Below are positions 2,826-12,766 of a stretch of 12,766 nt of DNA, piece after piece. The stretch's first letter is position 1. Each line of letters opens with the position of its first letter. A program made the position numbers and the translations under genes. The DNA is from a plasmid. The notes under the pieces are model-generated. The model ran no database searches. It was not told where the DNA came from and saw only the letters and a program-made list of their open reading frames with translations. Where the stretch lies: the NCBI RefSeq assembly GCF_056746865.1, contig NZ_JBWKMP010000007.1, one strand, 5' to 3'.

Positions 2826-2961
2826 GGAACGCGTTAAAACGCATACGGACGCGTTTCTGGCGCTCAAAAACCATGGGGTTAGTGTGGGTAGTGTGTATAG
2901 CAACAGGAGCCTGGAACGCGTTCCGCTTCTTCTGTAATCGACGCCAGAATGCGTTTAATGC
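2826..2961. promoter_or_regulatory. Cluster of dyad-symmetric motifs (GGAACGCGTT x2 including perfect palindrome GGAACGCGTTCC; inverted pair gacgcgtttctggcgc / gacgccagaatgcgttt)
   Basis: Direct reading: ggaacgcgtt at 2826-2835 and 2913-2922; gacgcgtttctggcgc at 2848-2863 with inverted partner cgccagaatgcg at 2942-2953. Function unknown; may be protein-binding sites. Confidence 0.3.
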
Positions 2962-3100
2962 TTCTTCTGATGGTATCAGAGAGGAGCTGCTTGAGTTATT
3001 CCTGTTGGCCACAGAGCGTAATTATCTCCTTTTCAGATCCACACGGGGATACGTCAGAATCGGAACTGAGCAAGGATTACTGAAAGATACTGTTTGCCAG

Positions 3101-3125
3101 AAAAAAAATCCTCATACATGATGAG
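3101..3125 (-). terminator. Hairpin followed by T8 on the minus strand (candidate intrinsic terminator for minus-strand transcription leaving the AT-rich island)
   Basis: Plus strand aaaaaaaatcctcatacatgatgaggat: 8-bp stem atcctcat/atgaggat, 5-nt loop. The A8 run on plus becomes a U-tract after the stem on the minus strand. Confidence 0.45.
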
Positions 3126-3420
3126 GATAAAGTCTTAAAGGTCCATTCTATGGAGTGTCGGATTGAAAAATTTCTCCGGATGATATCCTTCACAGTTTAA
3201 ATGTGATTTCAACCATAAGTTTTTTATGGATTTTGTTAAATAAAAAAGAATTGAGTCGTGTTTCTGATATGTCTGAATATAATAAGTGAACAGTTATAAA
3301 ATAATTGTTTTATATTTATTGTGAGTTTGATGTTATGTTCTGCATAAATAACTGTAGTTTAGAATATTATTCTTTTATATTTATAGCTGTGAGATGATAA
3401 ATTATAAGTGTTCTTTGTGC

Positions 3421-3448
3421 TATAAAGAACCCCCCGTATAAGGGGGGG
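3421..3448 (-). terminator. C6/G7 hairpin (ccccccgtataaggggggg) with U-rich tail on the minus strand
   Basis: Stem 3430-3435 / 3442-3448. Minus-strand reading gives the stem followed by ttcttta. Confidence 0.35.
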
Positions 3449-3564
3449 TAAAAGATGGGTTTACTTCTTTTTAGTCCATGCCCTGGTGAGCTACATGAAG
3501 CTCGACACTACAGTAAAGATTTGCAGTTTTTTTGAACTTTACGCAAGCAATTTATTTACATTGT

Positions 3565-3593
3565 AAAGAAAACCCCCTCAATTCCGGAGGGGG
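3565..3593 (-). terminator. Hairpin ccccctc-aattccg-gaggggg with U-tract on the minus strand
   Basis: Stem 3573-3579 / 3587-3593. The plus-strand A-run 3566-3572 becomes ttttctt 3' of the stem on the minus strand. Confidence 0.4.
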
Positions 3594-3898
3594 AGTGTAG
3601 GGAAGTGCCTGATTTATTTTATGTACGCGCAAAAATGAGATAGCTTTTATTAGATATCATCAGCCCTGTCTGCATCAGTCAGCTCCTTACAGCGTCAGGA
3701 GTACTGATGAAGGGGGGGAACGTTCCTGCGTTTTTGCAAAGGCAATCCGGCTAGAGGCTTTACTACGCAGAAACATTCCGGACAACTTTTTACCCCAGTG
3801 TAACTTGTAGATCAACCAGATTTTGTTGCAGTAAAAATACAGTGGTTTCGAATTTGTAACATTTGTCACAAAAATAACATCAATATGTTGGTTTTCTG

Positions 3899-3928
3899 TT
3901 GATAAATGGTTTGGTCGCTGATTATGAT
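3899..3928 (+). promoter_or_regulatory. Sigma70-like promoter candidate (TTGATA, 18-bp spacer, TATGAT)
   Basis: -35 ttgata at 3899-3904; -10 tatgat at 3923-3928. Followed by a leader hairpin gtactcc/ggagtac (3935-3952) that would sequester the AGGAG at 3944-3948. Confidence 0.3.
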
Positions 3929-3992
3929 TTCCTTGTACTCCACAGGAGTACAGTCATGTGCATACTAAAATCCGTGTTTTCGATAAAATTAA

Positions 3993-4020
3993 GGCCGTGA
4001 TACAGAATCACGGCTTTTTT
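3993..4020 (+). terminator. Rho-independent terminator (ggccgtga-tacagaa-tcacggc + T6)
   Basis: 7-8-bp GC-rich stem 3993-4000 / 4008-4014, T-run 4015-4020. Confidence 0.6.
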
Positions 4021-4056
4021 CTTGCCTGAAAGGATCATTTACGCTAGAAGAATTAT

Positions 4057-4119
4057 GAGCGCGTCTCTGGTGTTTGTTGCAGGGATAATATCTAATATGG
4101 GGCACCGGAAACGCGCTCT
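4057..4119. repeat. Dyad module A: 16-bp imperfect inverted repeat (gagcgcgtctctggtg ... caccggaaacgcgctc) around a loop of about 31 nt
   Basis: Direct reading. Paralogous to module B; the arms differ from B by a compensatory change (gcgcg/cgcgc in A versus gcgtg/cacgc in B). Confidence 0.5.
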
Positions 4120-4197
4120 CCCTTCGTATACAGAATGCCCATTAATTTCTTCTTCCTGATTTTCCAGACATATATTCTTGTGTAAATTAAAAAACAG

Positions 4198-4272
4198 AGC
4201 GTGTTTCTGGTGTGAATTTGTTGGCTACAATGTGCATTGTTGTTCTGTGTTCCAGAAACACGCTTCTTTTTT
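4198..4272. repeat. Dyad module B: 13-bp perfect inverted repeat (agcgtgtttctgg ... ccagaaacacgct), loop about 38 nt, A-run upstream and T6 downstream (bidirectional terminator-like)
   Basis: Direct reading: arms 4199-4211 and 4252-4264, T-run 4267-4272, A-run 4190-4195. Confidence 0.5.
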
Positions 4273-4395
4273 GAGATGCACATCGGTCTTATACAAAGAG
4301 GGATGGTTGTATCTGTGTCAGAGTTTTGTTATTTTTTGTATGCTCAGTTATTGATGGTTAATAATATCAAGAAAATCAGCAAGTTCCTTACACTA

Positions 4396-4421
4396 CCCCT
4401 CTTCAGTAGAGGGGTTTTTTT
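4396..4421 (+). terminator. Rho-independent terminator (cccctct-tcagt-agagggg + T7)
   Basis: Stem 4396-4402 / 4408-4414, T-run 4415-4421. Confidence 0.65.
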
Positions 4422-4490
4422 ATCTGGTACGCCGTAAAACCCGGTCCTTCAGGGCGTAGAGGATGTCAAAAATTTCTTCGAAAGGTAATA

Positions 4491-4721
4491 CCCGGTATCC
4501 CGCTCATGCTGGCGAACCCAGACACGCAGGGTCTCTGGCGTACAGCCAATCTTTGGAGCAATGGAACAAATTGCCGCCCATTGTGAGTCATATTCGCCCT
4601 GGCTTTCCAGAACCATACGAACTGCCCGTTGACGGACTTCGGGGGAAAAACGAGTATTTTTAGTCATCCTGTTTACATCTTTCTCAGGAAGTTTAGTCTC
4701 CAGGATTTCCGGGGCGGTTCA
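4491..4721 (-). mobile_element. 5' remnant of an IS3-family element (IS629/IS1203-like): terminal inverted repeat plus the first 59 codons of orfA, truncated
   Basis: Minus-strand ORF 4449..4667 begins [59 protein letters not shown], which matches IS629-type OrfA from memory, then diverges into an unrelated 13-aa tail. The reverse complement of 4690-4721 is the IS-end-like tgaaccgccccggaaatcctggagactaaac. Confidence 0.7.
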
Positions 4722-4949
4722 GTCCGGCAGAGATAAATTGCCACGGGAAGTTAGAGAAAAGTGCGGGAAAATGTCTTAAGAATGATTCTGGAAGAACGAA
4801 AAGTAAGAAGCGCAAAGGCTATGAGGGCAAAAGAGTATCGTGCCGCAGCGAATACTTTTACCTGGCAGCCTGTACAGCGCAGGTGAATAGACATTCCCCT
4901 GACTCATCCTGCTCCCCTTGGCGGCGAAGGGGATTAATCCCTATCCTGT

Positions 4950-5200
4950 AACTTCTATTTTGTGGAATCGAAAACAGCTGAAAATTGTGAAAAAAAACCG
5001 TTTCAGTCGTCTCAGTAAGGAAATTCGCTTGTGATTCACCTGGATGCATAGGTATGCATAAGGTTAAAATTTATCAGGCGCGATCGCGGTAGTTTTTCGG
5101 GGGGGTTGTTGCGATTTTTACCTGTCTGCTGCCGTGATTGCGCTGAATGCATTTCAGCGGTGCGTACAATTAAGGGATTATGGTAAATCCACTTACTGTC
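4950..5200. other. cer: cer-like multimer resolution site with XerC/XerD core ggtgcgtacaa-ttaaggga-ttatggtaaat at 5159-5188
   Basis: Core is identical to the ColE1 cer crossover site as I recall it. Upstream accessory region (gcataaggttaaaatttatcaggcgcgatcgcgg ...) also resembles cer, including paired tgcata half-sites near 5042-5060 (possible ArgR box). Confidence 0.7.
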
Positions 5201-5612
5201 TTCCCTCGTAGCCATCGAGATAAACCGCAGAAATCGTCTCAGCCAGCAGCCTGGATTTTTTCGGGGTAAGGTCTTTGCTGCGGTAATCAGTACCCGCAAA
5301 TTGAGTTGTGCCCCGGAGTGAGTTTAAAAATTCCTGGCTGTGAAACTGCTGAATGCGTTGCTGCACATCACTCCGTGATTTTCCTGTCGCTTTATCCTTT
5401 GCTCCCATATCCCAGAACTGCCGGAAAAAAGGCACCATCATTCGTGTTGTGTCGGCCTTCTGGGTGGAAAAGTTAGGATCAAAACCATCGTCTGATGCAT
5501 AAACGTAATGCCGGGTATGTTGTTCCACACTGCCCTTTGGCGTGCAGGCTGTCAGGACCGTTGCCGCTGTCAGCAGGGCGATAAGATACAGTGTGCCGCC
5601 GGAACGTCTCAT
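5193..5612 (-). CDS. Putative lipoprotein of unknown function (139 aa; signal peptide with lipobox LTAC)
   Basis: N-terminus MRRSGGTLYLIALLTAATVLTAC has a basic n-region, hydrophobic core and L-T-A-C lipobox. Mature protein is hydrophilic. I do not recognise the family. Confidence 0.55.
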   Translation of the reverse strand: MRRSGGTLYLIALLTAATVLTACTPKGSVEQHTRHYVYASDDGFDPNFSTQKADTTRMMVPFFRQFWDMGAKDKATGKSRSDVQQRIQQFHSQEFLNSLRGTTQFAGTDYRSKDLTPKKSRLLAETISAVYLDGYEGRQ

Positions 5613-5695
5613 GAGTGTCTCCTTACCTTTAAATCTTTGTACTCAGTGACTTATATTTAACCGCTGACTATCTTATCATCACTTGCAGTCGGTGC

Positions 5696-6133
5696 TCACC
5701 GGCTGAACAGTCTGGCCCAGAATCCCCGTTTTTTTTCCTGCTCCAGTGCCTGCCTGAGCTGCTCTATCTCTTTATGTAGCTGTTCCCGTTCGGCTTCCTG
5801 GCGCCGGCGTTCCGTAGCCTGTGCCTGTTTGTCCTCAAGCATCAGTGTCAGGCATTGTCTCAGCTCATTCAGCTCCCGGAGAATGCGTTCTGTCTGCTGA
5901 TCATGTGGATTTTCTGCCTGTCCCGCACTGTGCCTTTCTGGTGTCTCATCCTGCTTTAATTCGCCGTATGCCCGGATCAGTTCACTGGTTTCAAACTCCC
6001 GCCGTCCGTCCTGGCCTGTACGATAACTGACAAGGCCTGCGCGCATATCACGGTAAAACTGTGAACGCGATCTGCCTGTCATTTTCAGTGCGTTCTGGAG
6101 TGTGTGCCATGCCATGAAGTGACAGTGTCCCAT
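5696..6133 (-). CDS. Putative small DNA-binding protein with N-terminal helix-turn-helix-like segment and C-terminal coiled coil (start codon ambiguous)
   Basis: AWHTLQNALKMTGRSRSQFYRDMRAGLVSY looks like an HTH. C-terminus RRRQEAEREQLHKEIEQLRQALEQEKKR is a charged heptad-like helix. No strong RBS at any of the three candidate ATGs. Confidence 0.5.
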   Translation of the reverse strand: MGHCHFMAWHTLQNALKMTGRSRSQFYRDMRAGLVSYRTGQDGRREFETSELIRAYGELKQDETPERHSAGQAENPHDQQTERILRELNELRQCLTLMLEDKQAQATERRRQEAEREQLHKEIEQLRQALEQEKKRGFWARLFSR

Positions 6134-6281
6134 TAATGTCTCATATCATGGTTTCAGTAAAACATACTGGGGCCGGAGAACGGTAATGTTTGTGCTGGTT
6201 TTTGTGGCATCGGGTGGGAATAGCACGTGGTGTGGGTGGCTGTTTTTTTGATCGTTTTCACAAAAATGAAAATCCACAGGG

Positions 6282-6346
6282 TTGACAGGGAAAATGCAGC
6301 GGCGTAATTTTAAGCTGTATATAAAACCAGTAGTTATATATACAGT
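6282..6346 (+). promoter_or_regulatory. Colicin SOS promoter: -35 TTGACA (6282-6287), -10 TAATTT (6305-6310), tandem LexA boxes beginning CTGTATATAAAACCAG (6315-6330) and extending to 6346
   Basis: gctgtatataaaaccagtagttatatatacagta matches the dual CTGT-N8-ACAG LexA operator arrangement known for colicin E1-type promoters. RBS agagga lies 7 nt before the ATG at 6393. Confidence 0.8.
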
Positions 6347-6392
6347 ATATTGCTTTTAACTATTTGTTTTTAATGTCAAAGAGGATTTTATA

Positions 6393-7456
6393 ATGGAAAC
6401 AGCTGTAGCGTACTATAAAGATGGTGTTCCTTATGATGATAAGGGGCAGGTAATCATTACTCTTTTGAATGGTAATCCAGACGGGAGTGGCTCTGGCGGC
6501 GGTGGTGGAACTGGAGGTAGCAAAAGTGAAAGTTCTGCAGCCATTCATGCCACAGCTAAATGGTCTACTGCTCAATTGAAGAAAACGCAGGCAGAACAGG
6601 CTGCCCGGGCAAAAGCTGCCGCAGAAGCACAGGCTAAAGCAAAAGCAAACCGGGATGCGCTGACTCAACATCTGAAGGATATTGTGAATGAGGCGCTTCG
6701 TCATAATTCCACTCATCCGGAGGTTATTGACCTGGCTCATGCCAATAATGCAGCGATGCAGGCAGAAGCAGAGCGGTTGCGCCTTGCAAAAGCAGAAGAA
6801 AAAGCCCGTAAAGAAGCGGAAGCTGCGGAAAAGGCTTTTCAGGAGGCAGAACAACGACGCAAAGAGATAGAGAAGGAGCAGGCTGAAACAGAACGCCAGT
6901 TGAAACTGGCTGAAGCTGAAGAGAAACGGCTGGCAGCATTGAATGAAGAGGCCCGGGCAGTGGAGGTGGCACAAAAAAATCTTGCTGCTGCACAATCTGA
7001 GCTGGCGAAAGTGGATGAAGAGATTAAGACTCTCAATACCCGTTTAAGCTCCAGTATTCATGCCCGTGATGCAGAAATGAATACGCTGTCCGGAAAACGA
7101 AATGAGCTGGCTCAGGCATCTGCTAAATATAAGGAACTTGATGAACTGGTCAAAAAATTGTCACCAAGAGCTAATGATCCGCTTCAGAGTCGTCCTTTTT
7201 TCTATGCCACCAGTCGACGGACGGGAGCCGGTAAGATTATGGAGGAAAACAAAAACAGGTAACAGCATCAGAAACGCGTATTAACCAACTTAATGCTGAG
7301 ATAAATGGAATTCAGGGGGCTATGTCTCAGGCTAATAATAATCGTAATACAGCTGTTTTACGTGTTCATGAATCTGAAGAAAATTTGAAAACAGCGCAGA
7401 CTAATCTCCTGAACTCGCAGATTAAGGATGCTGTGGATGCAACAGTTAGCTTTTAT
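6393..7456 (+). pseudogene. cea: Colicin E1-type gene, 5' part (translocation and receptor-binding domains), with a 1-nt frameshift in an A-run (7246-7249) and truncated by the IS21-family insertion at 7456/7457
   Basis: METAVAYYKDGVPYDDKGQVIITLLNGNPDGSGSGGGGG... matches colicin E1 from memory. Frame 0 stops at 7260-7262; the colicin-like reading continues in the -1 frame (VTASETRIN...DAVDATVSFY) to 7456. Confidence 0.85.
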
Positions 7457-7658
7457 TGCAAAATGGCATCTGAATCGATCGCAGTTTGGCATTCGAATCG
7501 ATCATGATTTGGCATCCATCTCCGATCACAGTTTGGCATCACAATCGATCACGATTTGGCATGCTTCCGATCATTGATTGGCATCCTGCCAGTCACTCCG
7601 GGAATTAACTCTTTTCACCACAGTCTCCATTGCCGTGTTTAAACCAGTGGAGACGTCA

Positions 7659-9224
7659 ATGTCCAGAAAGAGAAAATCCAGGAGCACTATGGAAACCTGT
7701 TTTAAGATTCTTCAGCTCAAGTTCGACAAGAAGCTGACTAACCGTTGTATCGGACTGACGTTACACATCAGCGCCTCAACCGTTTTTGAGGTTCTTGCCC
7801 GCTTCAAAGCCTCTTCTCTGTCATGGCCATTACCTGCTGATATATCCCATGACACGCTGGAGAAACTCATTTTTCCGCCCAAAGACACCTTTGCATCAGA
7901 GCTTGTAATGCCTGACATGTTGTACCTCGATACGGAAATGAGAAAACCAGGTGTGACGCGGCAACTGTTGTGGATGGAATACAAGGCACAGGCGGGTAAC
8001 AAAGCGATGGGATACTCGCACTTCTGCCGTTGCTACCGGGAGTGGAAAAAAACGCGACGTCTCTCCATGCGCCAGGAGCATCGTGCCGGCGAAAAGCTTT
8101 TTATCGACTTCTGTGGTCCTACGGTTCCTGTTATTAATCCGGACACCGGTGAGATACGCCGCGTGGCAATCTTCGTGGCCGTAATGGGGGCGTCCAACTA
8201 TACCTACGTTGAAGCGTGCGAAGGTCAGGACATGATGTCATGGTTAAATGCCCACAGCCGTTGCCTGACCTTCCTGGGCGGCGTACCGAAGCTGCTCATC
8301 CCCGATAACCTCAGAAGCGCAGTGAAAAAGGCCGATCGATATGAGCCTGTCATCAACGACAGTTATCAGGCACTGGCTGAGCACTATGGCACGGTTATCA
8401 TCCCGGCCCGACCACGCAAACCTAAAGATAAACCAAAAGCAGAAAACGGCGTCCTCATCGTCGAACGATGGCTTCTTGCCCGCATCCGTAATGAAACCTT
8501 CCACACGCTCAGGGCGCTGAATGCGCGCCTTAGGGAGTTACTGACAGACATGAATAACCGGCCAATGAAGGGGTACGGCAATCAAACCCGTGCAGAACGC
8601 TTCCGCATACTGGATGCGCCAGCACTCTCTCCGCTGCCTCTGGCACCTTATGAATACACGGAATACAAAGCTGTGAAGGTTGGCCCTGACTACCACGTTG
8701 AATATGCCCGTCACTGGTACTCCGTTCCACACGAACTGGTCGGTCAGCGTCTGTCACTGAAGGCGGGGCAGTCGGTGGTACAGCTCTGGCACAAGGGGCA
8801 GTGTGTGGCGCAACATCCGCGCAGCACACATGAATATAAACACACAACCAATCCGCTTCACATGCCAGAGCGCCACCGGCAGCACGGGACATGGACACCG
8901 GAACGCCTGATCGAGCAGGGAAAACGTACGGGCCCGTCCACAGGCCGGGTGGTTGAATCCATGCTGAAGGCAAAACCCCATCCGGAACTGGCTTATCGTG
9001 CAGTTCTGGGGCTGCTGGCACTTCAGAAAAAATACGGCCCGGAACGGCTGGAAAAGGCCTGTTACGTTGCCCTGCACTATAACGCCCCTGACAGACGCTT
9101 TATCGACAATCTGCTGCGTCACCATCGGGAGAACCTGGAGCTTCCATTATCCCGCCAGGGCGAACAACATCCGGCATATGCTTCAGAGCATGAAAACCTG
9201 CGTGGTCCGGGCTACTACCACTGA
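7659..9224 (+). CDS. istA: IS21-family transposase IstA (521 aa)
   Basis: Long ORF with a DDE-type integrase core and the IstA-typical layout; followed 16 nt later by istB. ATG at 7659 preceded by ggag. Confidence 0.85.
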   Translation: MSRKRKSRSTMETCFKILQLKFDKKLTNRCIGLTLHISASTVFEVLARFKASSLSWPLPADISHDTLEKLIFPPKDTFASELVMPDMLYLDTEMRKPGVTRQLLWMEYKAQAGNKAMGYSHFCRCYREWKKTRRLSMRQEHRAGEKLFIDFCGPTVPVINPDTGEIRRVAIFVAVMGASNYTYVEACEGQDMMSWLNAHSRCLTFLGGVPKLLIPDNLRSAVKKADRYEPVINDSYQALAEHYGTVIIPARPRKPKDKPKAENGVLIVERWLLARIRNETFHTLRALNARLRELLTDMNNRPMKGYGNQTRAERFRILDAPALSPLPLAPYEYTEYKAVKVGPDYHVEYARHWYSVPHELVGQRLSLKAGQSVVQLWHKGQCVAQHPRSTHEYKHTTNPLHMPERHRQHGTWTPERLIEQGKRTGPSTGRVVESMLKAKPHPELAYRAVLGLLALQKKYGPERLEKACYVALHYNAPDRRFIDNLLRHHRENLELPLSRQGEQHPAYASEHENLRGPGYYH

Positions 9225-9240
9225 CAGAAGGAACAACAGT

Positions 9241-9996
9241 ATGAGTGATAACCTGTTAAACAAACTGACCCAACTGAAACTCCCGGCGATGGCCGGGAGC
9301 CTGATACGGCAGCGGGAAACGCCTCAGACCTACGACGAACTGTCGTTCGAGGAAAGGCTGACGCTGCTGGTTGATGACGAGCTTCTGAGCAGGGAAAACA
9401 GCCGTGTGGCACGGTTGAGAAAAAATGCCGGCCTGAAATACCAGGCAACACCGGAAGGGCTGCGCTATCCGGCCTCAAGAGGTCTGCGGGCTGAACAGAT
9501 GAGAGAACTGCTGAACGGCCACTACATAACCCACAGGAAAAACCTGCTGATAACCGGTCCGACAGGATGTGGCAAGAGCTGGATAGCCAATGCGCTGGGC
9601 GAACAGGCATGTCGACAGAAACACAGCGTCCGGTACTGTAGAACCGGGCGATTACTGGAACAACTGGCTCAGGGACGTGTTGATGGCAGCTGGCTGAAAT
9701 ATCTGAAACAGTTGCAAAAAATACAGGTTCTAATCCTGGACGATCTGGGGCTGGAACAGTTAAGTAACGCCCAGTGTAATGACCTTCTGGAGCTCATAGA
9801 GGATCGTTACGGACAAAGCAGCACGATAGTGGTAAGCCAGTTCCCGGTAGATAAATGGCATGGTCTGATGGAGAACCCAACAACAGCAGATGCCATCCTG
9901 GACAGACTGGTACATAACTCACACCGGGTGGTCCTTCAGGGAGAGTCACTGAGGAAAAATCCCCCGGTAGTGGAAAGCAGCGAAAAAACGCGTTAA
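9241..9996 (+). CDS. istB: IS21-family helper ATPase IstB (251 aa)
   Basis: Walker A GPTGCGKS and Walker B VLILDDLG motifs. RBS gaagga upstream of the ATG at 9241. Confidence 0.9.
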   Translation: MSDNLLNKLTQLKLPAMAGSLIRQRETPQTYDELSFEERLTLLVDDELLSRENSRVARLRKNAGLKYQATPEGLRYPASRGLRAEQMRELLNGHYITHRKNLLITGPTGCGKSWIANALGEQACRQKHSVRYCRTGRLLEQLAQGRVDGSWLKYLKQLQKIQVLILDDLGLEQLSNAQCNDLLELIEDRYGQSSTIVVSQFPVDKWHGLMENPTTADAILDRLVHNSHRVVLQGESLRKNPPVVESSEKTR

Positions 9997-10095
9997 AAAG
10001 CGGTAGAAAAAGTTAAGTTCCCGGTTGATCGAATGGATGCGAATCGCTGATCGGACTTCGATGCCAATCCGTGATCGAATAGAGCGGAATACGCA

Positions 10096-11040: not shown

Positions 11041-12235
<1,195 letters not shown>

Positions 12236-12370: not shown

Positions 12371-12766
12371 GTAAACGAAAAAACCGCCTGGGGAGGCGGT
12401 TTGATCGAAGGTTAAGTCAGTTGGGGAACTGCTTAACCGAGGTAACTGGCTTCAGCAGAGCGCAGATACCAAATACTGTCCTTCCAGTGTAGCCGTAGTC
12501 GGGCCACTACTTCAAGAACTCTGTTGCACCATTTGCGCCATCATCGCTCTGCTAACCAAGTTACCAACGGCTGCTGCCAGTGGCGCTTTGTCGTGTCTTA
12601 CCGGGTTGGACTCAAGACGATAGTTACCGGATAAGGCGCAGCGGTCGGGCTGAACGGGGGGTTCGTGCACACAGCCCAGCTTGGAGCGAACGACCTACAC
12701 CGAACTGAGATACCAACAGCGTGAGCTATGAGAAAGCGCCACGCTTCCCGAAGGGAGAAAGGCGGA
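12371..12766 (+). ncRNA. RNAII: RNA II replication primer precursor, 5' portion (continues into 1-about 160 if circular)
   Basis: Homology by eye to the ColE1 RNA II 5' region, with stem-loops such as ccgcctggggaggcgg (12384-12399). Downstream sequence is near-identical to pMB1 (ggtaactggcttcagcagagcgcagataccaaatactgtcctt...). Confidence 0.75.
12372..12479 (-). ncRNA. RNAI: RNA I antisense copy-number control RNA (about 108 nt)
   Basis: Complement of the first roughly 108 nt of RNA II. The minus strand begins acagtatttggtatctgcgctctgctgaagccagttacc as in pMB1 RNA I, and ends in a stem-loop plus U-tract (complement of aaaaaaccgcctggggaggcgg). Confidence 0.7.

Follow-up and report, generated by a model that had tools for sequence, protein, structure and literature searches.

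An IS629-like remnant in a ColE1-type colicin plasmid and the probable deletion that left it

IEE- and transposase-dependent excision of IS629 produces adjacent deletions ranging from a few nt to >40 kb, and for IEE, closure of IS629 breaks by microhomology-mediated joining has been documented (PMC9943667). The locus described here resembles the IEE-associated IS629 deletions of E. coli O157 in that an IS629-type element, loss of the DNA beside it and closure on a short homology come together. However, the IEE events remove the IS, starting at its transposase-cut ends (PMC9943667), whereas the remnant studied here keeps one end and 231 nt.

In comparison with IS629/IS1203, the terminus TGAACCGCCCCGG and the leader are shared, and over the surviving stretch the fragment agrees with canonical IS629 at 223/231 nt (96.5%; the reference is the copy annotated 'IS3 family IS629' in LC567824.1, an Stx2a phage, and not the ISfinder sequence). 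Yet the remnant keeps 231 of about 1,300 nt, without orfB, the frameshift site or the right inverted repeat. The nearest annotated counterpart is the PGAP partial-transposase pseudogene of pSMS35_8 and its sister plasmids, which is the same sequence in the same place; RefSeq labels the site in pSMS35_8 (NC_010485.1) and pMTY1886 as 'transposase; incomplete; partial in the middle of a contig; missing C-terminus'. The exact 72-aa protein read from the remnant is present in NCBI nr as 'IS629 transposase orfA' or 'IS629 protein' (BDO58640.1, EGB64219.1) and occurs in 49 contigs. The remnant is already publicly known as a partial transposase and is ordinary; the public annotation of the pSMS35_8-type remnant comes without the insertion target, the breakpoint and the IS-free ancestor, which are given here.

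The plasmid and its IS629-like fragment

The window, i.e., the whole stretch of 12,766 bases that was analysed, behaves as one whole ColE1-type colicin plasmid, with RNAI at 12375-12477 and with Rop, MobC, the MbeA relaxase, exc1/exc2, colicin, immunity and a lysis gene, as judged against pSMS35_8 and pMTY1886. Local BLAST resolves it into an 8.9-kb pSMS35_8-type plasmid plus two insertions, 7457-10095 and 11041-12235. Reading the window as the 8.9-kb plasmid passed more than once around was rejected, given that no periodicity is found and that the two IS insertions account for the extra length. At least 15 complete plasmids of 8.9-23 kb contain positions 4300-4900 (601 bases) at 99.5-100% identity, and in them the remnant is 100% identical. 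The features at the locus are the following.

4395-4421, plus strand: hairpin plus T-run ending the AT-rich island (terminator scan, sequence)
4421-4490: original plasmid DNA from the island terminator to the deletion junction, collinear with the two IS-free plasmids (L004 and L005, below) through 4502
4449-4667, minus strand: chimeric 72-codon ORF, made of OrfA residues 1-59 (the helix-turn-helix part), 13 flank codons and TGA
4491-4502: deletion junction, a 12-nt near-repeat, CCCGGTATCCCG on the plus strand (from comparing the window, the full IS and an IS-free plasmid)
4491-4721, minus strand: left end of an IS629-like element (IS3 family), comprising the terminal inverted repeat, a 54-nt leader and orfA codons 1-59
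4722-4886, plus strand: 3' remnant of a small ORF from codon 32 (..S/GRDKLPREV..), the target of the IS insertion, with its 5' part intact in L004

The IS terminus, which starts TGAACCG, lies at 4721, from where the minus strand reads downward to the orfA ATG at 4667-4665. Positions 4721 to 4491 are identical at 231/231 to the beginning (nt 1-231) of a full-length element of the IS3 family on pAPEC-O1-ColBM (L007 2501-3790, 1290 bp), and in alignment residues 1-59 of OrfA match 59/59 in the ColBM copy and 58/59 in the OrfA of IS629. Pfam places HTH_Tnp_1 (PF01527) on OrfA residues 1-56 with an E-value of 1.5e-7. Chance similarity is excluded, with the same 230 nt matched by 5,958 E. coli records. 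Past IS nt 231, alignment to the full element shows the window to be unrelated to the IS. The IS-derived part proper is 4491-4721, of which the last 4 nt (at most 12 nt) are common to the flank and hence ambiguous.

These alignments agree with the initial annotation, which had described the 5' remnant of an IS629-like, IS3-family element reduced to its left end and 59 orfA codons. Its interval, 4449-4721, runs exactly from the IS end to the stop codon of the chimeric ORF, and the alignment to IS629-like elements that it had proposed for locating the breakpoint puts this at IS nt 231.

As for the traits of the IS3 family, the 5'-TG terminal inverted repeat is present at the left end, as in full-length copies, and the right end is deleted. 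The N-terminal helix-turn-helix of orfA is also present, while OrfA, 108 residues long when complete, has lost its C-terminal 49. The orfB product, a DDE (rve) transposase made through -1 frameshifting, is absent from the window, where the sequence after nt 231 is unrelated; full-length relatives keep orfB (PGAP 'IS3 family transposase', with an AL1L pseudoknot). Given this absence, the sequence is a fragment of an IS3-family member and not a functional member. Of the target-site duplication, the right-hand copy alone (GTC/GTCC, 4722-4725) can be deduced, from the IS-free site.

PGAP names the relatives 'IS3-like element IS1203 family transposase', and IS629 belongs to the IS51 group of ISfinder. 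The threshold for isoforms at ISfinder is about 95% nucleotide identity. The nearest full-length relative, the 1290-bp element of pAPEC-O1-ColBM, is 94.1% identical to canonical IS629 overall and 20 bp shorter, and hence represents a variant at the edge of this threshold. The full-length variant with the identical 231 nt is common on large ColV/ColBM and IncK plasmids of avian E. coli, and identical 231-nt copies on large plasmids are often found in strains that also hold the remnant-bearing small plasmid. Strain LH10-b-1 is an example, and it has an IS-free small plasmid as well.

Insertion target and deletion joint

Comparing the flanks with other replicons, the second check named in the initial annotation, yielded two IS-free sister plasmids in which the site is undisrupted. 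These are the colicin R plasmids pLH10-b-1-D (L004) and p14408_3 (L005), which have the same island and the same right flank and no piece of the IS. In place of 4503-4721 they hold 143 bp (L004 8182-8324); otherwise they are collinear with the window at 97-99% identity, and their AT-rich island is 97% identical to that of the window. The 143 bp of L004 contain AGGAGG followed by ATG and 31 codons (MSWVKLTEAERK...AQLKLS), which run directly into GTCCGGCAGAG, i.e., the window sequence from 4722 onward. In comparison with these plasmids, the left IS end in the window still adjoins the original target sequence.

The small ORF split by the insertion is homologous to an 81-aa hypothetical protein of the IncK2/Z plasmid pEGY2 (L006 8951-9196). 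No Pfam or NCBIfam family was found for it. The 81-aa family occurs mainly on small mobilizable ColE1-type plasmids, mostly in Klebsiella (373/400 tblastn hits). In relation to the 81-aa form, the window and the IS-free E. coli plasmids have a -1 frameshift (AAG->AG) in common. Given that the frameshift is already present in the IS-free plasmids, the IS probably landed in a gene that was dead before its arrival.

At the other side of the remnant, the IS and the undisrupted flank share the near-repeat CGGGATA(C/T)CGGG, which agrees at 11/12 positions and reads CGGGATACCGGG in the IS (nt 220-231) and CGGGATATCGGG in the undisrupted flank. On the minus strand, with the slash marking the joint, the three sequences are as follows.

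Window: ...CAGCATGAGCGGGATACCGGG / TATTACC...
Full IS: ...CGGGATACCGGG / GGCGGTG...
IS-free plasmid: ...CTTCGGGATATCGGG / TATTACC...

At the sole mismatch of the near-repeat (4495), the window carries the IS-type base, which places the crossover within the last four bases, 4491-4494.

The history we favour, with high confidence, is that the island was there first, that the IS629-like insertion came later and that a deletion of about 1.2 kb, guided by the microhomology, followed. In a first step, an IS629-like element transposed into codon 31/32 of the already frameshifted small ORF, between the AT-rich island and cer of a ColE1-type colicin plasmid. In a second step, a single deletion of about 1.2 kb would have joined CGGGATACCGGG to CGGGATATCGGG beyond the right IS end. 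From the IS it would have taken everything from nt 232 onward (the remaining part of orfA, the whole of orfB and the right inverted repeat). The left copy of the target duplication would have gone with it, as would some 150 bp of plasmid DNA, in which lay the ribosome-binding site and first 31 codons of the small ORF. The plasmid lineage bearing the scar would then have spread, mostly in poultry-associated E. coli. That a deletion next to the IS rearranged this spot, as the initial annotation had supposed, is borne out by the joint inside orfA and by the IS-free comparison.

The comparison shows what the fragment is, where the element inserted, the microhomology at the junction and that the island preceded the IS; a single deletion, made by microhomology-mediated joining, is what we infer. 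The intermediate predicted to precede it, a full IS with the small-ORF flank and the right IS end, would read CAGTTAAAGTTGTC(C)TGAACCGCCCCGGGTTTCC; no record covering it was found in PLSDB, and hence a one-step and a multi-step deletion are indistinguishable. The joining could be replication slippage or break repair, possibly following a break initiated by transposase or IEE at the right IS end; slippage and break repair are inseparable by sequence, although repair would agree with the account of IS629 and IEE (PMC9943667).

The transposition machinery might instead have truncated the element by itself, through a transposase-mediated 'adjacent deletion' and not through microhomology joining. 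Adjacent deletions are commonly generated by IS elements, the IEE/transposase-dependent excision of IS629 deletes DNA beside the IS over the size range given above (PMC9943667), and in pEC332_05 the presence of a related IS goes with the loss of the entire colicin/exc region. However, such a deletion would keep an intact IS terminus at the new joint, whereas here the joint falls within orfA (nt 231) and the one terminus that is left still has its original flank, so that a classic adjacent deletion from a transposase-cut end does not fit. The 11/12 near-repeat at the joint is, moreover, a signature of homology-guided joining. We hence regard an adjacent deletion as unlikely. A hybrid course, with a break at the right end, resection in both directions and microhomology-mediated closure, is possible and is counted within the favoured history.

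The AT-rich island and the accessory module

The remnant lies inside a larger accessory segment, whose features are the following.

2861-4981: 2.1-kb accessory module holding the island, the IS remnant and the small-ORF remnant; 6.9-kb relatives have about 99 bp instead
3128-3108, 3449-3429 and 3593-3573, minus strand: island terminators (hairpin plus T-run)
3991-4017 and 4395-4415, plus strand: island terminators (hairpin plus T-run)
5159-5188, plus strand: cer core (Xer recombination site), a 30/30 match with 0 expected by chance

The sequence used as query for the cer core is that of ColE1. In local BLAST against pDEC5A-3 (L003), matches cover 1272-2860 and 4982-7456 and leave out 2861-4981. 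In comparison with the 6.9-kb relatives, the borders of the module are 2860/2861 and 4981/4982, the right one 260 bp past the IS end and adjoining the cer region; the module thus sits between the mob genes and cer. The AT-rich island was found on plasmids only, in 36/5,426 complete E. coli genomes, mostly from poultry. Large IncK2/Z-type plasmids carry homologues of it, at about 80% identity, in IS-rich surroundings.

In the initial annotation, the remnant marked the junction of the island and suggested that the island had been acquired or rearranged by IS-mediated recombination or deletion. On this reading, the remnant would be the recombination junction that acquired or rearranged the island, either as an arm of a composite transposon or by homologous recombination between IS copies, the partner being a large plasmid. 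GC content is 38% in the island (2861-4420) and 47-52% thereafter, and the remnant lies within 70 bp of this step at the island's right end. The IncK2/Z homologue of the island stands amid IS3-family and other IS elements, one of which, an IS629-like copy, lies some 60 bp away from the left end of the homologue, and some metagenome contigs join the remnant terminus to unrelated DNA exactly at 4719-4721.

The comparisons decide against this origin. In L004 and L005 the island and both flanks are contiguous, with the 5' part of the split ORF intact and 143 bp between island and right flank; hence the IS arrived after the island. The module borders, 2861 and 4981, lie away from the IS and carry no IS end. 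The closeness of the remnant to the GC step is coincidental to the history of the island. The left border has a short shared motif of its own. Since the remnant lies inside the module and the module exists without it, the IS neither bounds nor delivered the island, and the arrangement is not that of a composite transposon or of an IS-bounded island. Given the contiguity in L004 and L005, this reading appears largely refuted, and we consider it very improbable.

The odd contig joins are most simply assembly chimeras. Between eight and ten contigs with the exact 72-aa protein were examined, and the same colicin plasmid accounts for most of them. In five MEGAHIT contigs (k=141; ENA), the IS terminus is followed by DNA of the chromosome or of a large plasmid, and the foreign flank of one of them matches chromosomal loci that have a full-length IS in many genomes. 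The hybrid join is found in 0/5,426 complete genomes. With a full IS at the foreign flank and no complete genome showing the hybrid, these contigs were rejected as evidence of recombination; they are probably chimeras assembled through the 231-nt repeat, and they may also be rare cointegrates formed by homologous recombination. Some caution is hence due with short-read metagenomes, as a 231-nt fragment identical to full-length copies in the same cells appears to seed chimeric contigs. Among the ENA contigs (L013, L019-L024), the fused loci are a NERD-helicase, OmpT/Mig-14 and a SPATE autotransporter.

The IS scar matters little in itself. What the comparison provides is the order of events in the plasmid lineage: the island, then the IS629-like insertion and then, in the favoured history, the 1.2-kb deletion. 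The origin of the AT-rich island must be sought elsewhere than in the scar. Given that the family of the 81-aa ORF is native to small ColE1-type plasmids, the island copy on the large plasmids may be the derived one. At the left module border, the ColE1 backbone, the window (2848-2862) and the IncK2/Z homologue (L006 about 5957) have the motif (G/A)CGCG(T/A)TTCTGG in common. The motif may mean that recombination at a short homology joined the module, or else that an integrated ColE1-type plasmid gave rise to the copy on the large plasmids.

The content of the island was also surveyed. Neither Rfam, at gathering and E-value thresholds, nor Pfam, in six frames, gave a match on the island, and no ORF overlapping 2861-4448 exceeds 66 aa, apart from two at the left edge that start in the backbone. 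The island has 10 terminator-like hairpins, with 1.6 expected. In comparison with the IncK2/Z homologues, near-invariant blocks alternate with diverged ones, and the blocks tend to end in a hairpin plus T-run. The island is possibly a cluster of small RNA or small-peptide genes. The best small-RNA candidate is 3899-4022 (plus strand), with a fold z-score of -3.7, a promoter-like TTGATA-18-TATGAT at 3899-3928 and, after it, an almost invariant block of roughly 90 nt ending in the terminator 3991-4017. In pEGY2, the stem of this terminator differs by a compensatory change from C:G to T:A. A 26-codon ORF, MGLLLFSPCPGELHEARHYSKDLQFF, at 3455-3535 (plus strand) is conserved in the diverged island homologues, with two synonymous differences, one non-synonymous and one from stop to stop. 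Overlapping this ORF is a minus-strand unit (fold z -2.45) whose end is the terminator 3449-3429, and the two are reminiscent of a type I toxin-antitoxin arrangement.

The chimeric ORF and other insertions in the plasmid

Translation of 4667..4449 confirms the chimeric ORF of the initial annotation, in which 59 orfA codons read into unrelated sequence. The tail of 13 codons is unrelated to OrfA and is read from the flanking plasmid DNA (4421-4490). In the favoured explanation, taken as a whole and with the same high confidence, the remnant and its 72-codon ORF would be an inert scar, the ORF being a by-product of the junction. With one end and no transposase, the remnant cannot transpose.

The region of the insertion is also hit in other plasmids. 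Four independent IS3-family insertions fall within about 400 bp around the island terminator (window-equivalent 4334-4721) in different plasmids, among them L006 7513-8846, L009 from about 5416 onward and L011 4980-5714. IS2 is found near the terminator in two positions and orientations (pEGY2, pTB-nb2). In pEC332_05, a relative of IS629 with 94% identity lies 27 bp from the microhomology site, and the colicin/exc region is lost. The IS629-like element of the window makes up the fourth insertion. Such clustering may reflect a hot spot or simply dispensable DNA. A broader idea is that 4334-4721 is a hot spot for IS3-family elements and that an OrfA' limited to the helix-turn-helix, perhaps expressed by read-through from exc1-exc2, acts in trans on full copies. 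The support for both the hot spot and the trans-acting OrfA' consists of co-occurrence, and we give this idea very little credence.

A functional remnant was considered as well, in which the helix-turn-helix-only OrfA' would bind IS629-type ends in trans, altering or damping transposition of the full copies on co-resident plasmids, or in which transcription entering or leaving the IS end would run antisense into the island. The start codon and the helix-turn-helix domain are intact, and OrfA is a regulator in IS3-family elements (IS911/IS3). The genes exc1-exc2 lie upstream of the remnant on the same strand, and no minus-strand terminator is predicted in the scanned stretch up to 5100. Nor is one predicted for transcripts leaving the remnant, given that the hairpin at 4395-4421 is not followed by a T-run on the minus strand. 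Hence read-through from exc1-exc2 is possible.

However, the initial annotation's suggestion of a retained IS-end promoter driving transcription into the flanking DNA finds no support in the sequence: the consensus scan of the minus strand (4600-4721) gave no sigma-70-like promoter, and the best hits of a laxer scan of the remnant agree at 8/12 positions and have 19-bp spacers. In place of the Shine-Dalgarno AAGAGG of canonical IS629, the remnant's variant reads AAGATG. The leucine-zipper part of OrfA, needed in IS911 for the protein to multimerise and to bind the ends efficiently, is deleted. The 13 residues of the tail are an arbitrary stretch of the flank, and PGAP calls the ORF a pseudogene. 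Conservation is uninformative here, as all copies of the scar are identical (clonal), so neither selection nor neutrality can be assessed from divergence. Nothing points to a role for the 72-aa product, and we consider a functional remnant very improbable.

The two insertions by which the window exceeds the pSMS35_8-type plasmid are the following.

7457-10095: IS21-family element, 2,639 bp, with TG...CA ends, tandem repeats near the left end and a 7-bp duplication CTTTTAT
7578-9224: IstA (rve plus Mu-transposase C domain)
8998-9996: IstB
11041-12235: IS5-like element, 1,195 bp, with a 4-bp duplication
11073-12089: 338-aa DDE_Tnp_1 transposase of the IS5-like element

The IS21-family element sits in the colicin structural gene and is absent from every database relative examined, and the IS5-like element sits in the colicin lysis gene. 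To judge from these positions, the colicin operon is disarmed by the two insertions, with the immunity gene kept.
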